A stretch of DNA of 64,000 nt from an uncultured Anaerolineaceae bacterium (GTDB taxonomy: Bacteria > Chloroflexota > Anaerolineae > Anaerolineales > UBA4823): NCBI GenBank assembly GCA_964385625.1, contig CAYLPS010000010.1:31-64030 (forward strand), read 5' to 3'. Both the position numbers and the translations under genes were made by a program. Below the pieces are notes generated by a model. It saw only the letters and a list, made by a program, of their open reading frames with translations. It searched no databases and was not told where the DNA came from. Shown piece by piece: positions 17,489-42,860 of this stretch (positions are counted from its first letter, which is position 1; the number at the start of each line of letters is the position of its first letter).

Positions 17489-17546
17489 CTTAAACCTCTT
17501 GTGGATTAGAACATTTGTGCTATAATTAGAACGTAATTACTCATTG
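17489..17546 (+). promoter_or_regulatory. promoter-like core, copy A (TTGTGG-16 nt-TGcTATAAT) with overlapping operator-like motifs
   Basis: -35 at 17499-17504 and extended -10 at 17518-17526. The core is 51/58 identical to the reverse complement of 42803-42860. Confidence 0.5.
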
Positions 17547-18072
17547 CTGCTTTTCTCCTCCTCTCCAAATTTTTTTAATTTGGAGGAGGCGGGAGGGAGT
17601 GGTCGGCGAAGGCTGATCTTGTGCTCTATCAGGGTGCGGTTTCAACCGCCGTCATTATCCGTACAACCTGTGTCATCTGCTTTCATGCCTATACATGTCC
17701 CAATGATCATGATCCGTGTAATCCGCAATAAAAACCTGTACCAGGTGTTCTTCTTGCTATCCATTGTCAGCCTGTTATCAAACTCCGTCCGCCTGGTCAC
17801 TTGTGCTCTTCAACCAGGGCGGAGCCGTGGCTGCCGTGGTTTTCGGTGTCATCGAAGAATATTTCGACGCGGTTGTCAGCCTGCTCGATAAGGTATTACT
17901 AATTTACACATTATGTCAATTACAGTTCCTTTGTGCCTGCCTCGAATGGTTCTTGATGGGCCTACCCCGGTTCTTTCGGGGTCCTCGGTGTCCTTCGTGC
18001 CTTCTATTGTCTTCATCATCTGCAGCTCAAAAATATTCGTTCCTCGTCGTTTTTTTATGGAACGAATGATAA
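17547..18072 (+). ncRNA. candidate non-coding transcript / ORF-poor module downstream of promoter copy A
   Basis: No convincing ORF. A 5' hairpin at 17557-17589 pairs CCTCCTCTCCAAATT with AATTTGGAGGAGG. Short blocks are shared collinearly with locus B. The 3' end is undefined. Confidence 0.3.
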
Positions 18073-18093
18073 CAAGTCTATATTAAATTCATC

Positions 18094-18115
18094 GGGGCTG
18101 GCTCGAGCCAGCCCC
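18094..18115 (-). terminator. 22-bp perfect palindrome GGGGCTGGCTCGAGCCAGCCCC downstream of ppdK
   Basis: Read directly. It lies 37 nt after the ppdK stop. A second hairpin at 18035-18067 (ATTCGTTCC...GGAACGAAT) is followed by ATTTTT on the minus strand. Confidence 0.6.
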
Positions 18116-18151
18116 TACACTGACAATCATAAAATCTGCTCAATGTCCGCT

Positions 18152-20917
18152 TTACTTATCTTCCACCAGCCCCTTGCCGCTGTGCTTCAGCGCCGCATGC
18201 GACGCCGCCAGGCGTGCCACCGGCACCCTGAACGGCGAGCAGCTCACGTAGTTATTTCCTACTATGTGGCAGAACTCGATCGAATCCGGGTCGCCGCCAT
18301 GCTCGCCGCAGATGCCCACTTCCAGCTCCGGGCGTGTCTTGCGCCCATCCTCGATCGCCATCTTCATCAGCCTCCCCACTCCACTGCGGTCCAATGTCTG
18401 GAAGGGGTTCCTGGGCAAGATGCCCTCCGCAATATAGGTCACCAGGAAGTTGCGCTCCGCATCATCGCGACTGTAACCGAAGGTCATCTGCGTCAGGTCG
18501 TTCGTTCCAAACGAGAAGAATTCGGCGTATTCGGCAATCTCACTCGCTGTCACTGCCGCTCGCGGGATCTCGATCATCGTGCCAAACTTGTAAGAGAAGT
18601 TGACCTTTTTCTCTTTCATTACGTCATCGGCGATCTTGATCAGGCGGGGCTGGATCCACTTCAGCTCGTTCACCGTGCCGGTCAGCGGGATCATCACCTC
18701 GGGCTTCACCACCACCCCATCCAGGGCGCAGTCTGCCGCTGCCTCGAAGATCGCTCTCACCTGCATCTCCACGATCTGCGGCATGTAGATGCTCAGCCGC
18801 ACACCCCGCAAGCCCATCATCGGGTTGCTCTCGTGCATCGCCCGAATATCCGCCAGCAGGCGCTCTTTCTCCACCAGTTTCTCGGTCTCTCCCTTCACTC
18901 GCATGGTCACCACCTCTTCGAACAATTGCTCTTCATCGGGCATGAACTCATGCAGGGGCGGGTCGATCAGTCGGATGATCACCGGGTAGCCATCCATGGC
19001 GCGGAACAGTCCATCAAAATCCGACCGTTGGTAGGGCAGCAGTTCATCCAGTGCTGCTTTCCGCTCTTCGGGCTTTTCCGCCAGGATCATGCGCTGCACA
19101 ATGGGCAGGCGCTCTTTCTCGAAGAACATGTGCTCGGTGCGGCACAGGCCGATTCCCACTGCCCCGTAGGAGCGCGCCCGCTGGGCATCCTTGGGGTAAT
19201 CGGCGTTCGCCCACACCTGCAATCCTTTGCTGGGCCATCCGGGGGCAAATTTGCGCATCCCGGGTGTGGCACAGATCTCATCCGCCCATTCCAGCAGCTT
19301 CAGCAGGTCGGTTTGCTCTTCCAGTTTTGGTGCTGTGGTGGGGATCTGTCCCAGGAACACTTCACCCGTGGTGCCATCCACCGAGATCCATTCCCCCTCC
19401 TTCACCATCTTGCCATTCACACTCATCTGCCGCTCTTCCAGGTCGATTTTGATTTGCGAAGCCCCCACCACACATGGGATGCCGAACTGGCGTGCCACCA
19501 CTGCCGCGTGCGAGGTCGCCCCGCCTTCGCTGGTCAGCACACCTTTCGCCGCGATCATCCCGTGTACGTCATCCGGCTTGGTGAACGGGCGCACCATGAT
19601 CACATCTTGCTTGTTCTGCCGGGCATTCATCTCAGCAGTGTTGGCATCGAAATACACCTGCCCTACTGCCGCACCCGGCGAGGCATTCACCCCTTTGGCA
19701 TACAGGCGTCCATCCTTCTCTGCCGCCTGCTTGGCTTTGGCGTCATATTGTGGGTGCAGCAGCGTATCCACCTGCTCTGGGGTCACCCTTTGCACGGCTT
19801 CCTCTTTGCCAATCAGCCCCTCGTCTGCCATGTCCACTGCCACTTTCACTGCTGCCTTGGCGGTGCGCTTACCGTTGCGCGTCTGCAGCATCCACAGCTT
19901 GCCACGCTCAATGGTGAATTCCACATCCTGCATATCAGTGTAATGTTTTTCCAGCTTGTCGGTGATATCCATGAACTGGTGGTACACCTCGGGCATGCTG
20001 GAGCTAAGTTGCTCGATTTTCTCGGCGTTGCGGATGCCCGCCACCACATCTTCACCCTGCGCATTCAGCAAATACTCGCCGAACATCTTCTTCTCGCCCG
20101 TGGATGGGTCGCGCGTGAAAGCCACGCCCGTTCCCGAATCATCCCCCATGTTGCCGAACACCATGGTGACGATGTTGACCGCTGTCCCCAGGTCATCCGG
20201 GATATTGGTCGCCCGGCGGTAATCCACTGCCCGCTTGCCATTCCACGATTTGAACACCGCTTCGGTTGCCAGCTTCAGTTGTTCGTACGGGTCTTGCGGG
20301 AAGTCAAACCCCTTTTCTTTCTTTACCACCGCTTTGAAGGTATCGGTGATGGCTTTCCAATCTTCCGCCTTCATTTCTGTATCCAGCTTGTAACCCTTCT
20401 TCTGCTTATATTCAGCCAGCGGTTTCTCAAAGGCTTCGTCTGCAATGCCTAACACCACCGTGCCGAACATCTCCACCAGCCTGCGGTACGCGTCGTACAC
20501 AAAGCGGGGATTATTGGTCAGCTTCACCATTCCCTCTGCGGTAGCATCGGTGAGGCCAATGTTTAGCACCGTGTCCATCATCCCCGGCATCGAAAACTTG
20601 GCCCCCGACCGGCAGGACACCAGTAACGGGTTGCTCGCATCACCAAATTTCTTGCCTGTCTGGTGCTCCACTTTGTGCAGCGCTTCCAGTTCTTGTTCCC
20701 ACATACCAGGAGGGAAGTTCCCCTTTGCCTGGTATGCGTTACAGGCTTCGGTGGTCACCGTAAACCCGGGGGGCACCGGCACTGCTGCCCTCGTCATGTC
20801 TGCCAGGCCCGATCCTTTGCCGCCCAGTAATCCACGCACCCCATCCCAGCTGCCCCCCACGTACTGCTCCGCGAGATTAACCTCGTCAAATGAAAACACC
20901 CATTTCTTTTCAGTCAT
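18152..20917 (-). CDS. ppdK: pyruvate, phosphate dikinase
   Basis: 921 aa. GGKGSGLADM, the phospho-His region TSEGGATSHAAVVARQFG, and the PEP-utilising C-terminal domain GICGEHGGDP. Confidence 0.95.
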   Translation of the reverse strand: MTEKKWVFSFDEVNLAEQYVGGSWDGVRGLLGGKGSGLADMTRAAVPVPPGFTVTTEACNAYQAKGNFPPGMWEQELEALHKVEHQTGKKFGDASNPLLVSCRSGAKFSMPGMMDTVLNIGLTDATAEGMVKLTNNPRFVYDAYRRLVEMFGTVVLGIADEAFEKPLAEYKQKKGYKLDTEMKAEDWKAITDTFKAVVKKEKGFDFPQDPYEQLKLATEAVFKSWNGKRAVDYRRATNIPDDLGTAVNIVTMVFGNMGDDSGTGVAFTRDPSTGEKKMFGEYLLNAQGEDVVAGIRNAEKIEQLSSSMPEVYHQFMDITDKLEKHYTDMQDVEFTIERGKLWMLQTRNGKRTAKAAVKVAVDMADEGLIGKEEAVQRVTPEQVDTLLHPQYDAKAKQAAEKDGRLYAKGVNASPGAAVGQVYFDANTAEMNARQNKQDVIMVRPFTKPDDVHGMIAAKGVLTSEGGATSHAAVVARQFGIPCVVGASQIKIDLEERQMSVNGKMVKEGEWISVDGTTGEVFLGQIPTTAPKLEEQTDLLKLLEWADEICATPGMRKFAPGWPSKGLQVWANADYPKDAQRARSYGAVGIGLCRTEHMFFEKERLPIVQRMILAEKPEERKAALDELLPYQRSDFDGLFRAMDGYPVIIRLIDPPLHEFMPDEEQLFEEVVTMRVKGETEKLVEKERLLADIRAMHESNPMMGLRGVRLSIYMPQIVEMQVRAIFEAAADCALDGVVVKPEVMIPLTGTVNELKWIQPRLIKIADDVMKEKKVNFSYKFGTMIEIPRAAVTASEIAEYAEFFSFGTNDLTQMTFGYSRDDAERNFLVTYIAEGILPRNPFQTLDRSGVGRLMKMAIEDGRKTRPELEVGICGEHGGDPDSIEFCHIVGNNYVSCSPFRVPVARLAASHAALKHSGKGLVEDK

Positions 20918-42087: not shown

Positions 42088-42152
42088 CGTAGGGGCGGGT
42101 CTGAGAATTTCTCAAATTGTAATGAAGTGAGGATTTGAGATCCGCCCCTACG
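42088..42152. repeat. REP-like palindromic element CGTAGGGGCGGGTCT ... AGATCCGCCCCTACG
   Basis: 15-nt inverted arms with one mismatch and a 35-nt spacer. The same GTAGGGG/CCCCTAC theme appears at 17306-17314, 17391-17399 and 18094-18118. Confidence 0.6.
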
Positions 42153-42373
42153 GCTTAGGTAAATGTACCGGCAAACTGGGGGAGGAAATTGGTTATTGAG
42201 CGGGTGGTATCCATATAGATGAATGGGTGGATGACAAAAAACATGGCGCCAACTGAGATCCAAGAGTGGCATGTAATTACATCCTATACCGGTAAAGATC
42301 AACCGGTATACGAGTGCGTTTATTTATAGATAAACTTATGAAGCCATCCATATCGATCAAAAACCAATCGATA

Positions 42374-42416
42374 CGAAGATGATTTTATCAACGAAAGTCA
42401 TATGAAATCATCTTCG
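42374..42416. repeat. 12-bp perfect inverted repeat CGAAGATGATTT / AAATCATCTTCG with 19-nt spacer
   Basis: Read directly. It is flanked by further perfect hairpins: ATACCGGT/ACCGGTAT at 42286-42309 and TATCGAT/ATCGATA at 42351-42373. Confidence 0.7.
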
Positions 42417-42802
42417 ATGTAATTACTCACAGAGAGAAGGGTTTGGATCACGAAAAGCACGAAAAAAACGAAACACGCGGAATGGGATGAAGTTTTTCAG
42501 CGGCGGTTGTAACCATGCCTTCGAAAAGCACCAGGGCAGCCTTTGTCGACCAGAAAAGGCGGAGGGTAATACACGATAACTGTCATCCGGTCATTACCCG
42601 ATGTTCCTAAGAATTACGTATGTCATAATTTAGCCAAACTGTTCAGAATTGTAGGTCCAATATACCTCAGTTATCAAGGACGATTGTTTCAGCGGGCTTT
42701 ATACCCGGTGAAATTTCGTATGTATCGTGACCGCCCACTTCGCAATGACTAAATTATAGAGGGTTTTATTCAATCGTAGACGATCACAAGGAACAGTTTA
42801 AT

Positions 42803-42860
42803 CAATGAGTAATTACTCATCGATTATAGCACAAATGTTCTAATCCACAAGGGGTTTAAG
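42803..42860 (-). promoter_or_regulatory. promoter-like core, copy B (minus strand), with 16-bp perfect palindrome just downstream of -10
   Basis: On the minus strand: -35 TTGTGG (42845-42850) and -10 TATAAT (42823-42828) preceded by TGc. ATGAGTAATTACTCAT lies at 42805-42820. Confidence 0.5.

Follow-up and report, generated by a model that had tools for sequence, protein, structure and literature searches.

The window, a stretch of 64,000 nucleotides from an uncultured Anaerolineaceae bacterium, carries a 58-bp repeat in two copies (A and B) that lie in opposite orientation 25 kb apart. We consider it likely that this repeat is a junction, formed by a LexA-box promoter cassette (P) and the end of an IS66-family element targeted at a fixed distance from the box. 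Both halves, an SOS promoter cassette and an IS66-family element, are familiar kinds of element; the targeting rule appears to be unreported.

A repeat search of the window ranked the inverted pair 17489–17546/42803–42860 top (58 nt, 88% complementary), and local BLAST gave it an E value of 6e-14. The letters quoted for both copies in the original prediction match the window sequence exactly. The 28-mer TTGTGGATTAGAACATTTGTGCTATAAT has two exact matches, at 17499–17526 (+) and 42823–42850 (−), and did not occur in 100 dinucleotide shuffles. Composite in structure, the repeat opens with 38 nt that form the core of P (the −35 to −10 part); the next 6 nt belong to a target duplication and the following 12 nt are a terminal inverted repeat. 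Five of the seven mismatches between the copies fall inside one 6-nt block (TAGAAC versus CGATGA); this block is part of a variable target-site duplication. Beyond P and the inverted repeat, overall identity between the copies collapses.

P is about 70–85 bp long, and its core reads TTGTGG, a 16-nt spacer and TGcTATAAT. Its left boundary is sharp at ATGAGAAATCTT, where the homology of more than 60 cassette copies begins. The two window copies are laid out as follows:

17459..17526, + strand: P of copy A, from ATGAGAAATCTTAA to the −10, homologous to more than 60 cassette copies
17499–17504, 17518–17519 and 17521–17526, + strand: −35 (TTGTGG), TG extension and −10 (TATAAT) of copy A
17507..17522, + strand: LexA/SOS-box-like near-palindrome TAGAACATTTGTGCTA of copy A, overlapping spacer and −10
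42823..42889, − strand: P of copy B, with the −35 at 42850–42845, the LexA-like box at 42842–42827 and the −10 at 42828–42823

The LexA motif published for Gram-positive bacteria is GAAC-N4-GTTC (PMC3323433). TAGAACATTTGTGCTA is a box of this type with one half-site mismatch (GTGC for GTTC), and the window holds two AGAACN4GTKCT sites, both inside the two cassettes. The same 21-mer stands upstream of RecA (three loci), a Pol IV/UmuC-like protein, a TIGR03916 repair radical-SAM protein and GyrB, as well as RarA in locus L093. The motif and this set of downstream genes suggest that the box in P is a putative LexA operator. Neither the LexA box nor the composite make-up of the 58-mer featured in the original prediction. 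Its reading of the core as a promoter is strengthened by our analysis: the extended −10, TGcTATAAT, is perfect, the weak −35 varies towards TTGACA among family members, and recA and other genes are preceded by the same core. A simple consensus promoter scanner did not call the P site in the window, because TTGTGG agrees with TTGACA at only 3/6 positions. Our search for P matched at least 100 loci, most of them in Anaerolineae MAGs and many located at contig ends, and 68 cassette copies were present among 100 loci sampled, again mostly Anaerolineae. P recurs dozens of times per genome in many Anaerolineae MAGs and does not form the small family that had been proposed.

The second half of the junction is an IS66-type terminal inverted repeat, the last 12–14 nt of the 58-mer, preceded by an 8-bp target duplication that comprises the AT of the −10 and the following 6 nt. 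The inverted repeat stands 5–6 nt after the −10 in 27 of 66 cassette copies. Perfect 8-bp duplications beginning with the AT of TATAAT were found in L014, L038, L047, L049 and L089, with three in L098, and DDE_Tnp_IS66 proteins are encoded in L049 and L005. Transposase homologues at E <= 1e-40 number 2596, and the best 120 of the 2596 are nearly all about 454–461 aa long. In 14 of 14 loci examined, the parent element measures 1419–1420 bp, with a single ORF and GTAAYTACTCAC repeats at its ends; seven flank pairs are 8/8 duplications, the remainder being mismatched or single flanks. The MITEs are short transposase-less derivatives with the same repeats as this 1419-bp element, and their traces in the window are:

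42817..42824, − strand: left copy of the target-site duplication of B, ATCGATGA
42419..42816, − strand: 398-bp IS66-family MITE of B, inverted repeats GTAATTACTCAT and GTGAGTAATTAC
42411..42418, − strand: right copy of the duplication of B, ATCGAAGA, 7/8 identical to the left copy
17525..17532, + strand: 8-bp target site of A, ATTAGAAC, left copy only
17533..17544, + strand: left terminal inverted repeat of an IS66-family MITE in A, GTAATTACTCAT

No ORF with a family match was found in the 398-bp MITE, and the B sequence minus the MITE reads like the unit of P and hairpins (H) of L087. In A, MITE-derived sequence extends to about 17730. A duplication identical to ATTAGAAC flanks a full IS in L134 (8/8), the CU/GA hairpin at 17553–17600 resembles on direct reading the third MITE of the L047 unit, and 17600–17651 shares homology with internal sequence of the B MITE. 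No right repeat or duplication of copy A was detectable and its right MITE end is not identifiable; it is classed as a MITE by its left end and the interior similarity. The earlier guess of a non-autonomous mobile-element relic holds for the last 12–14 nt of the core, an IS66-type repeat, and for the 398 bp of module B that are a MITE with a target duplication.

The element inserts at a fixed position relative to the box. First, in 59 flanks of metagenome IS copies chosen by an IS-internal 17-mer, independent of P, the distance from the end of the LexA-box core (GAACN4GTTC, <=2 mismatches) to the repeat is exactly 12 nt in 28; offsets of 11 and 13 occur once each, and the remaining offsets (2–39) 0–1 times each. 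This sample includes canonical boxes outside P, in L158 and L230, as direct reading of the flanks revealed. Second, 13 of 14 IS copies chosen by transposase alone abut a LexA-box promoter when their flanks are read by eye, lying 2 nt from the 3′ side of the box or, at CCTTGTGG, 2 nt from its 5′ side. A box is missing from 4 of the 46 IS copies having both flanks visible, and the transposase-chosen copy of L120 lies elsewhere; targeting is therefore strong, not absolute. To our knowledge the IS66 family has no such target rule, and literature searches found none at a LexA-type operator.

Downstream of each P, the modules are without credible ORFs, as first described (no ORF of either module has a Pfam match), and the facing genes are indeed convergent, ppdK for A and an HD-domain gene on the + strand for B. 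The claim of collinear downstream blocks is partly borne out, by three aligned pairs, one of them at E = 0.065, while the GTGTAATCCG block is not significant alone (E = 0.47). A reading as one collinear ncRNA locus is not supported; the modules are mosaics built from distinct repeat families, namely a MITE, hairpins in the same orientation as P and a 3′ module, T, that is conserved.

17600–17651 with 42552–42501: block pair, 52 nt, 73%, E = 2e-5 in local BLAST
18030–18067 with 41902–41865: block pair, 38 nt, 82%, E = 2e-5 in local BLAST, also in the repeat search
17759–17776 with 42028–42011: block pair, 18 nt, 94%, E = 0.065 in local BLAST
18030..18067, + strand: T module of copy A, ATTCGTTCC-TCG-TCGTTTTTTT-ATGGAACGAAT, the conserved 3′ end of P...T units
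41865..41902, − strand: T module of copy B, from the repeat search
18094..18115, strand unassigned: GC-rich hairpin GGGGCTGGCTCGAGCCAGCCCC, flanked by the T module and the ppdK stop, by direct reading
42285..42416, − strand: hairpin (H) modules of B, with H1 at 42416–42374
42373–42351 and 42308–42287, − strand: H2 hairpins of B, TATCGAT-TGGTTTTTG-ATCGATA and TACCGGT-TGATCTTT-ACCGGTA
42271..42282, strand unassigned: perfect palindrome ATGTAATTACAT, abutted repeat tips GTAA/TTAC, by direct reading

The hairpin GGGGCTGGCTCGAGCCAGCCCC is probably a shared, bidirectional terminator, not called by the scanner because a T run is absent. The palindrome ATGTAATTACAT could be a footprint, or what remains of a solo end.

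It is possible, if doubtful, that the P...T units are genuine SOS-induced ncRNA genes, whose hairpin arrays and T act as RNA (e.g. in protein binding) and for which IS and MITE are secondary parasites. Strand bias is consistent with such a role: 33 of 36 T modules lie <2 kb downstream of P on the same strand, at 79–1065 nt, and strict hairpins with TGNTYTY loops near P are co-oriented in 42 cases and anti-oriented in 1. The UGNUCUU loops are kept while stems differ, the first and third T arms of L070 change jointly (TTTGTTTC/GAAACAAA), and the window loci are 99.2–99.9% conserved, without indels, in population assemblies spanning them. However, the Rfam scan suggested in the original prediction matched no family, P-to-T content and length vary widely, and the stems are almost all Watson–Crick, with no G-U excess to favour RNA over DNA. 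Same-orientation hairpins also occur upstream of the −35 within cassettes, the L087 cassette has an inserted hairpin block, and the third T arm is inconsistent or absent in many copies. Two of eight population assemblies at locus A (L107 and L108) break away inside P, at 17496/17497.

The whole P...T unit could instead be a non-autonomous modular mobile repeat with an outward promoter, inserted twice in the window; we regard this, too, as possible but doubtful. Dozens of copies per genome, many at contig ends, the sharp left boundary, and a conserved 5′ module, variable count of internal hairpin modules and conserved 3′ module would all suit a mobile repeat. The orientation bias of the first downstream gene is weak (27 co-directional versus 16 opposed), the DUF6544 gene adjoining copy B is cut to its C-terminal third, and in L024 a unit lies next to the orthologous POR operon in the opposite orientation. 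Yet the P...T boundaries could not be linked to terminal repeats, a target duplication or a recombinase, the nearby integrase is a generic Xer-like recombinase, and 8–10 assemblies of the source species showed no empty site or presence/absence polymorphism.

Five of six IMG/VR matches to the 21-mer contain the full cassette with a structured leader of about 165 nt after it. In L123 the leader precedes a terS-like gene (tested against PHROGs), a large ORF read as large terminase, and lysozyme-like, portal-like and capsid-like ORFs, and six GTDB MAG loci (L003, L007, L015, L051, L066, L096) carry the same unit. The cassettes might thus be orphan copies of a promoter region in which P drives the packaging/head operon of an Anaerolineae (pro)phage, the ORF-poor units being decayed or duplicated pieces. 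We judge this improbable, as the window units have only P in common with the phage unit, leader and phage genes being absent, and cassette copies far outnumber that unit. An inversion of 25 kb, past or ongoing, with the pair at its ends would explain why the pair is inverted and 88% identical over 58 nt, but is hardly credible for a repeat that is one among many dispersed copies, whose identity drops away beyond P and the inverted repeat and which encloses ordinary housekeeping genes: a 64.9-kb contig carries both loci in the window arrangement, other assemblies agree, no alternative A–B junction was seen in the assemblies examined, and the boundary-repeat claim is not supported, both loci being unchanged in eight to ten population assemblies.

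Returning to the junction of promoter cassette and targeted IS66-family end, we postulate that P acts as a sigma-70-type promoter whose −10 is extended and which carries a GAAC-N4-GTTC-type operator. Because this operator overlaps spacer and −10, LexA would keep P off, and DNA damage would switch it on through RecA-stimulated LexA cleavage. On either side of the 16-bp box, the element picks 8-bp targets that start at a distance of 2 nt, which is 4 nt from the GAAC/GTTC core. Insertion on the downstream side falls 6 nt after the −10, about the transcription start, so that a co-directional full IS copy would be transcribed from the SOS promoter; repeated insertions stack in tandem with a common 8-bp duplication. 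Copy B would be a P–hairpin–T unit that took up the 398-bp MITE, and copy A an older unit that kept the left MITE end alone. The rest of each ORF-poor module would be the cassette's non-coding cargo: the T module at the 3′ end, co-oriented UGNUCUU-loop hairpins and further short repeats. The implication, if the promoter fires, is a damage-induced non-coding transcript from each module towards the convergent neighbour gene.

P resembles LexA-repressed SOS promoters with the GAAC-N4-GTTC (Cheo) box in its palindrome over −10 and spacer and in the identical core before recA and a Y-family polymerase gene. In contrast to these, it is multiplied as a 70–85-bp cassette with a conserved upstream half, mostly heads non-coding sequence and has the half-site GTGC. 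The P...T units share conserved 5′ and 3′ modules, variable hairpin modules, intergenic location and many copies with pneumococcal BOX (boxA-boxB(n)-boxC), E. coli BIMEs and Neisseria Correia elements, and with these and the 'putative mobile promoters' reportedly described by Matus-Garcia et al. in 2012 they share a potential to drive or alter neighbouring transcription. They differ from BOX, BIMEs and Correia elements in having no sequence relationship to them and a complete SOS-type promoter aboard.

The inserting element shares with IS66-family insertion sequences a DDE_Tnp_IS66 transposase, repeats starting GTAA, an 8-bp duplication and short transposase-less derivatives, but has no tnpA or tnpB and lands at a constant spacing from a LexA-type operator; we take it to belong to the single-ORF, ISBst12-like subgroup. 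Target-specific insertion sequences in multicopy repeats include IS1397/ISKpn1 (REP/BIME), IS1111-attC (integron attC sites) and IS4321/IS5075 (Tn21 ends), which likewise combine position-fixed insertion, a short conserved multicopy target and tandem pile-ups. Here, by contrast, both sides of the palindrome are used and the landmark is a regulatory operator in an active-looking promoter, and insertion would therefore also wire the element to the stress regulon.

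The two 58-nt sequences paired in the original prediction, copy A (17489-17546, + strand) and copy B (42803-42860, - strand), were both quoted exactly and rank first among the window's inverted pairs (58 nt, 88% complementary). Their BLAST E-value is 6e-14, and the central 28-mer, exact at 17499-17526 (+) and 42823-42850 (-), occurred 0 times in 100 shuffles. The modules that they head are ORF-poor as described, with no ORF matching Pfam in either, and their convergent neighbours are indeed ppdK and an HD-domain gene. Among the collinear blocks proposed downstream, 17600-17651 / 42552-42501 and the 3' pair 18030-18067 / 41902-41865 are individually significant, while the two shorter blocks are not when taken alone. 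The 58-mer itself is composite, consisting of 38 nt of a dispersed promoter cassette of ~70-85 bp (hereafter P), 6 variable nucleotides of a target duplication and an inverted repeat, which is the reason why 5 of the 7 mismatches fall in one 6-nt block. Two of the explanations first offered for the pair do not survive: what had been suggested to be a single ncRNA family is instead an SOS-type promoter cassette, as predicted below, joined to the end of an IS66-family MITE (a short derivative of a 1419-bp insertion sequence that lacks the transposase), and an inversion scar is at odds with the source-species assemblies, which keep both loci, one 64.9-kb contig carrying both in the window's arrangement with no inversion seen. 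The source-species assemblies spanning the loci are 99.2-99.9% identical without indels, and both loci are fixed.

Scanning one genome per species with the 21-mer TTAGAACATTTGTGCTATAAT revealed at least 100 loci, nearly all in Anaerolineae or Chloroflexota MAGs; among the matches listed there are many copies per MAG, and many lie at contig ends. When 102 sites were aligned on the 21-mer (100 loci among the matches listed and the two window copies, P_A and P_B), 68 shared the longer cassette, with consensus ATGAGAAATCTTAAA..(variable)..TAAACCCCTTGTGGATTAGAACATTTGTGCTATAAT and a sharp left boundary. Assessed as a candidate sigma-70 promoter (hexamers 16-18 nt apart), P has a perfect -10 TATAAT with TG extension and a 16-nt spacer. 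Its -35, TTGTGG, is weak (3/6 matches), a simple promoter scanner makes no call at the site, and direct reading of the flanks showed TTGACA in its place in some family members. In 27 cases the first gene downstream runs in the same direction as P and in 16 it runs against it, and owing to this absence of a strong orientation bias we rejected the idea that P is just a portable promoter serving whichever gene follows. Low-complexity runs of GCTAATTGCTGA-like heptamers, rich in stop codons (e.g. gctcattgctgaatgctcattgctgaatgctcatagctga), lie immediately 5' of many cassettes, and also at the 3' ends of the units that P heads, before the next gene; they are seen in the following comparison loci.

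L095, L053, L078, L069, L048, L121, L096, L122: GCTAATTGCTGA-like runs, just 5' of cassettes or just before start codons

P contains an invariant near-palindrome, TAGAAC-ATTT-GTGCTA, that agrees at 7/8 core positions with GAAC-N4-GTTC, the LexA motif in Firmicutes and Actinobacteria (PMC3323433). Only two AGAACN4GTKCT sites exist in the window, both in the cassettes, against an expectation of 0.11. Matches of the 21-mer outside the cassette were used as independent evidence for the LexA reading of this box. Here the first gene after the 21-mer encodes RecA in three loci (TIGR02012, above cut-off), a Pol IV/UmuC-like polymerase in two Clostridia and GyrB in four loci, with RarA and the TIGR03916 'DNA modification/repair radical SAM' protein also represented among the first genes. 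Because of the box motif, the hallmark genes that follow the same 21-mer and the restriction to two sites in the window, we read P as an SOS-type promoter, in which the predicted LexA operator (TAGAACATTTGTGCTA) overlaps the spacer and the -10 and would mediate repression and induction.

The last 12-14 nt of the 58-mer are a transposon end, with inverted repeats beginning 5'-GTAA. In L005 and L049 these repeats enclose ORFs that encode DDE_Tnp_IS66 (Pfam PF03050; E = 4e-24 and 2e-37), and the window copies, without transposase, are of MITE type. Their ends lie as follows.

42816-42805 and 42430-42419: inverted repeats of the B MITE, GTAATTACTCAY / GTGAGTAATTAC
17533-17544: left inverted repeat of copy A, the right one being absent

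A search of copy A for a right inverted repeat or right duplication gave nothing convincing, and 17716-17735 was rejected as the right end of its MITE, this block being shared by copy B outside B's own MITE. In the wider family, GTAATTACTCAC reappears downstream in inverted form (GTGAGTAATTAC) and encloses ORF-less segments of 76-400 bp; in L049 the repeats enclose 1421 bp encoding DDE_Tnp_IS66, with ATCAGGGG at both flanks and then a second copy of the element. The L005 transposase gene is co-directional with P. The 1419-bp element comprises a single 454-aa ORF and lacks the accessory tnpA/tnpB of canonical IS66, an organisation that we take to be compatible with the single-ORF subgroup of the family. 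Perfect 8-bp target duplications (8/8) were found in L014, L038, L047, L049, L089 and L098 (three times), and also in L119, L120, L128, L129, L130, L134 and L135; the three tandem elements of L098 all share ATTAGACT. In window copy B, the 398-bp element at 42816-42419 is flanked by ATCGATGA / ATCGAAGA (7/8). The duplications of elements directly at P begin, every one, with the AT of TATAAT. Copy B minus its MITE resembles the P-hairpin unit of L087, and on direct reading the interior of copy A is similar to one of the MITEs of the L047 unit. In three loci, as many as three MITEs or two full IS copies are stacked in tandem, with an identical 8-bp duplication between them.

L098 (P at 2627, minus strand): tandem stack
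L075: tandem stack
L049: tandem stack

Since this first sample had been selected on P, we resampled insertion sites in two P-independent ways. First, transposase homologues were located on contigs, giving 14 loci, all of which contain a 1419-1420-bp element. Seven flank pairs are perfect 8/8 duplications, the others being mismatched or single flanks, and 13 of the 14 IS copies adjoin a LexA-box promoter when the flanks are read by eye. The IS, found in both orientations, inserts 2 nt away from the 16-bp box, at AT+6 on its 3' side or at CCTTGTGG (-35) on its 5' side, two positions placed symmetrically around the dyad. In L129 and L135 the promoters, read from the flanks, keep the box and the -10 and are missing the canonical upstream half of the cassette. 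Second, a metagenome scan with an IS-internal 17-mer returned 52 left ends, which belong to 46 unique copies. In 28/59 flanks the distance between the repeat and the end of a GAACN4GTTC core (<=2 mismatches) is exactly 12 nt, compared with one flank each at offsets 11 and 13 and 0-1 at all others from 2 to 39. Perfect boxes outside P are used as well (L158 and L230, direct reading of flanks). Box-adjacent insertion is a strong rule but not an absolute one, as four copies with both flanks visible have no box. Box-proximal re-insertion explains why tandem stacks share one duplication, and the insertion rule explains a repeat family that is widespread but has gone unannotated, and at which Anaerolineae assemblies break into separate contigs. 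In L023, L024, L038, L004 and others, further MITE ends are found 5-8 nt beyond the 3' arm of hairpins of the H2 type (e.g. ...TACCGGTAAGGGT|GTAATTAC); this may be a third preferred insertion context, with a geometry unlike that of the LexA-box sites.

We tentatively advance the possibility, with more doubt than confidence, that the IS66-family transposon uses the LexA operator as a landing beacon, either reading the palindrome itself or being tethered by operator-bound LexA, and integrates to either side of the dyad, at a distance of one helical turn. The transposase gene and the MITEs would thereby be plugged into SOS promoters, with transposition switched on by DNA damage, and the dozens of decoy-like SOS cassettes that head hairpin-rich non-coding units in Anaerolineae genomes would absorb insertions that might otherwise strike recA and other essential SOS genes. 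Should the positional rule hold, this is a clean, testable case of a transposon selecting its targets through a global stress operator, in which target choice, expression and the SOS response are linked in one step. In practical terms, the rule offers a way of marking SOS promoters in a phylum that has been little studied. For the window the consequence is modest, namely two non-coding, probably damage-inducible units facing ppdK and the HD-domain gene. The IS, the MITE and the repeat are the ordinary part of these findings; the unusual part is an insertion rule anchored on the operator, together with an SOS cassette present in many copies; our literature search found neither the cassette and inverted-repeat sequences nor a description of operator-targeted IS66 insertion or of a multicopy SOS cassette.

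Cassette A is broken at 17496/17497, after CTTAAACC, in 2/8 same-species assemblies (L107 and L108, from 7683 onward). The incoming sequence in both (CTTAGGTTCGGACACAAGTTCGGACA...) starts CTTAGGTTCGGACACAAGTTCGGACAAAGG and is followed by an ORF (MDKCINFSAFMRYLF...), and a similar end in the opposite orientation adjoins TTAAACC of the cassette in the viral locus L127. The sequence breaking P_A appears to belong to a second IS family, for which P is a target as well. In IMG/VR, 5/6 matches to the 21-mer consist of P and then a conserved, RNA-like structured leader of ~165 nt (16-bp closing stem, z = -3.6, no Rfam match), after which comes a 117-aa terS-like protein with the motif GNLNALKHG.

L003, L007, L015, L051, L066, L096 (six MAGs): P, leader and terS-like unit
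L122-L125, L127 (viral): P, leader and terS-like unit

In L123 the leader is followed by the terS-like gene (tested against PHROGs) and then, by reading, by putative large terminase, lysozyme, portal and capsid ORFs. Such units may represent a prophage or GTA-like element under direct SOS control.

Other repeats and genes adjoin the two loci. REP-like long palindromes, GTAGGGG(A/C)..N..(G/C)CCCCTAC, lie at 17306-17399, upstream of cassette A, and at 42151-42089, inside module B; their GTAG tip is typical of REP elements. Arms like GTAGGGGCRGGTC/GACCYGCCCCTAC are present in L007, L042, L085 and L089, and these REP-like palindromes form a separate family. The ORF at 42909-43340 (+) corresponds to a DUF6544/DUF6920 protein over the C-terminal third alone (positions 138-220 of a 221-position profile). 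A hairpin module (ACCCGCTTCAACGGGTTT..GCCATGGGTTTCAACCCATGG), which in L043 and L021 is found downstream of the conserved 3' module T, overlaps the first ~36 codons of this ORF, and the repeat cluster apparently truncated the gene. Between this fragment and an Xer-like integrase gene lies another conserved hairpin with the TGATCTT loop, GAGCCRCAAG-TGATCTT-CTTRYGGC-GTGG, on the minus strand.

Window 43432-43475: GAGCCRCAAG-TGATCTT hairpin
L087 2974-3015: GAGCCRCAAG-TGATCTT hairpin
L035 1921-1964: GAGCCRCAAG-TGATCTT hairpin

A 247-aa ORF at 16442-17185 (+) is situated between cassette A and the POR operon; it matches nothing in Pfam or NCBIfam, and its start differs among gene callers (238 or 247 aa). 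Exact-protein look-up of the 247-aa product gave no record, but other assemblies do contain the locus. Comparison of L024 5064-5620 with window 14055-17500 showed POR genes that are 78% identical and a P unit just beyond POR-gamma, in the opposite orientation to the window's and with different cargo (two MITEs), which points to independent acquisition or rearrangement at the same intergenic site.

The units from P to T (P...T) end in TTCGTTYC-N3-4-TCGTTTT, often followed by an inverted AACGAA arm. T occurs 36 times in 771 kb, and 33/36 occurrences lie <2 kb downstream of a same-strand P, at 79-1065 nt. An integron or Xer site was rejected for T, the neighbouring integrase being generic Xer-like and not of the IntI type (TIGR02249: 24 bits, cut-off 265), and on inspection the T arms do not fit the RYYYAAC/GTTRRRY of attC boxes; an intrinsic terminator was likewise discarded, the scanner making no call on either strand. 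A small-ORF reading (MLYQGAVSTAV / MLFEGMVTTAA, at 17621 and 42531) was dropped because the conserved GGTTTCAACC stretch is found elsewhere as a hairpin with different stems, and leaderless micro-ORFs in the short units were rejected for their inconsistent lengths and stop positions. The hairpins vary in their 6-7-bp stems but keep the loop TGNTCTT(T), which to our mind resembles rRNA and phage boxA (UGCUCUUUA).

That the P...T units are RNA genes seems rather unlikely to us. The hairpins are strongly co-oriented with P (78 vs 9 in a loose search, 42 vs 1 in a strict one); others of the kind are placed 5' of the -35 or inserted into a cassette. A comparison of G-U with A-C pairs found 470 Watson-Crick, 9 G-T and 13 A-C pairs in the stems, an outcome that fits RNA or DNA hairpins alike. 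The hairpin set examined for covariation had been selected for pairing, and a formal count on it would be circular. No tRNA genes were found in the window; Rfam gave 0 matches there at the gathering score, with only noise at E <= 10 in locus A, and nothing above noise in the units of 18 related loci or in the phage-type leader. A mobile mosaic of the BOX/BIME kind is also possible, and we regard it with similar reserve. For movement of a P...T unit as a whole, we found no boundary repeats and, in the source-species assemblies, no presence/absence polymorphism. Like BOX/BIME repeats, the P...T units are multicopy and intergenic, with ordered modules of variable internal number, a likeness of architecture alone and not of homology.
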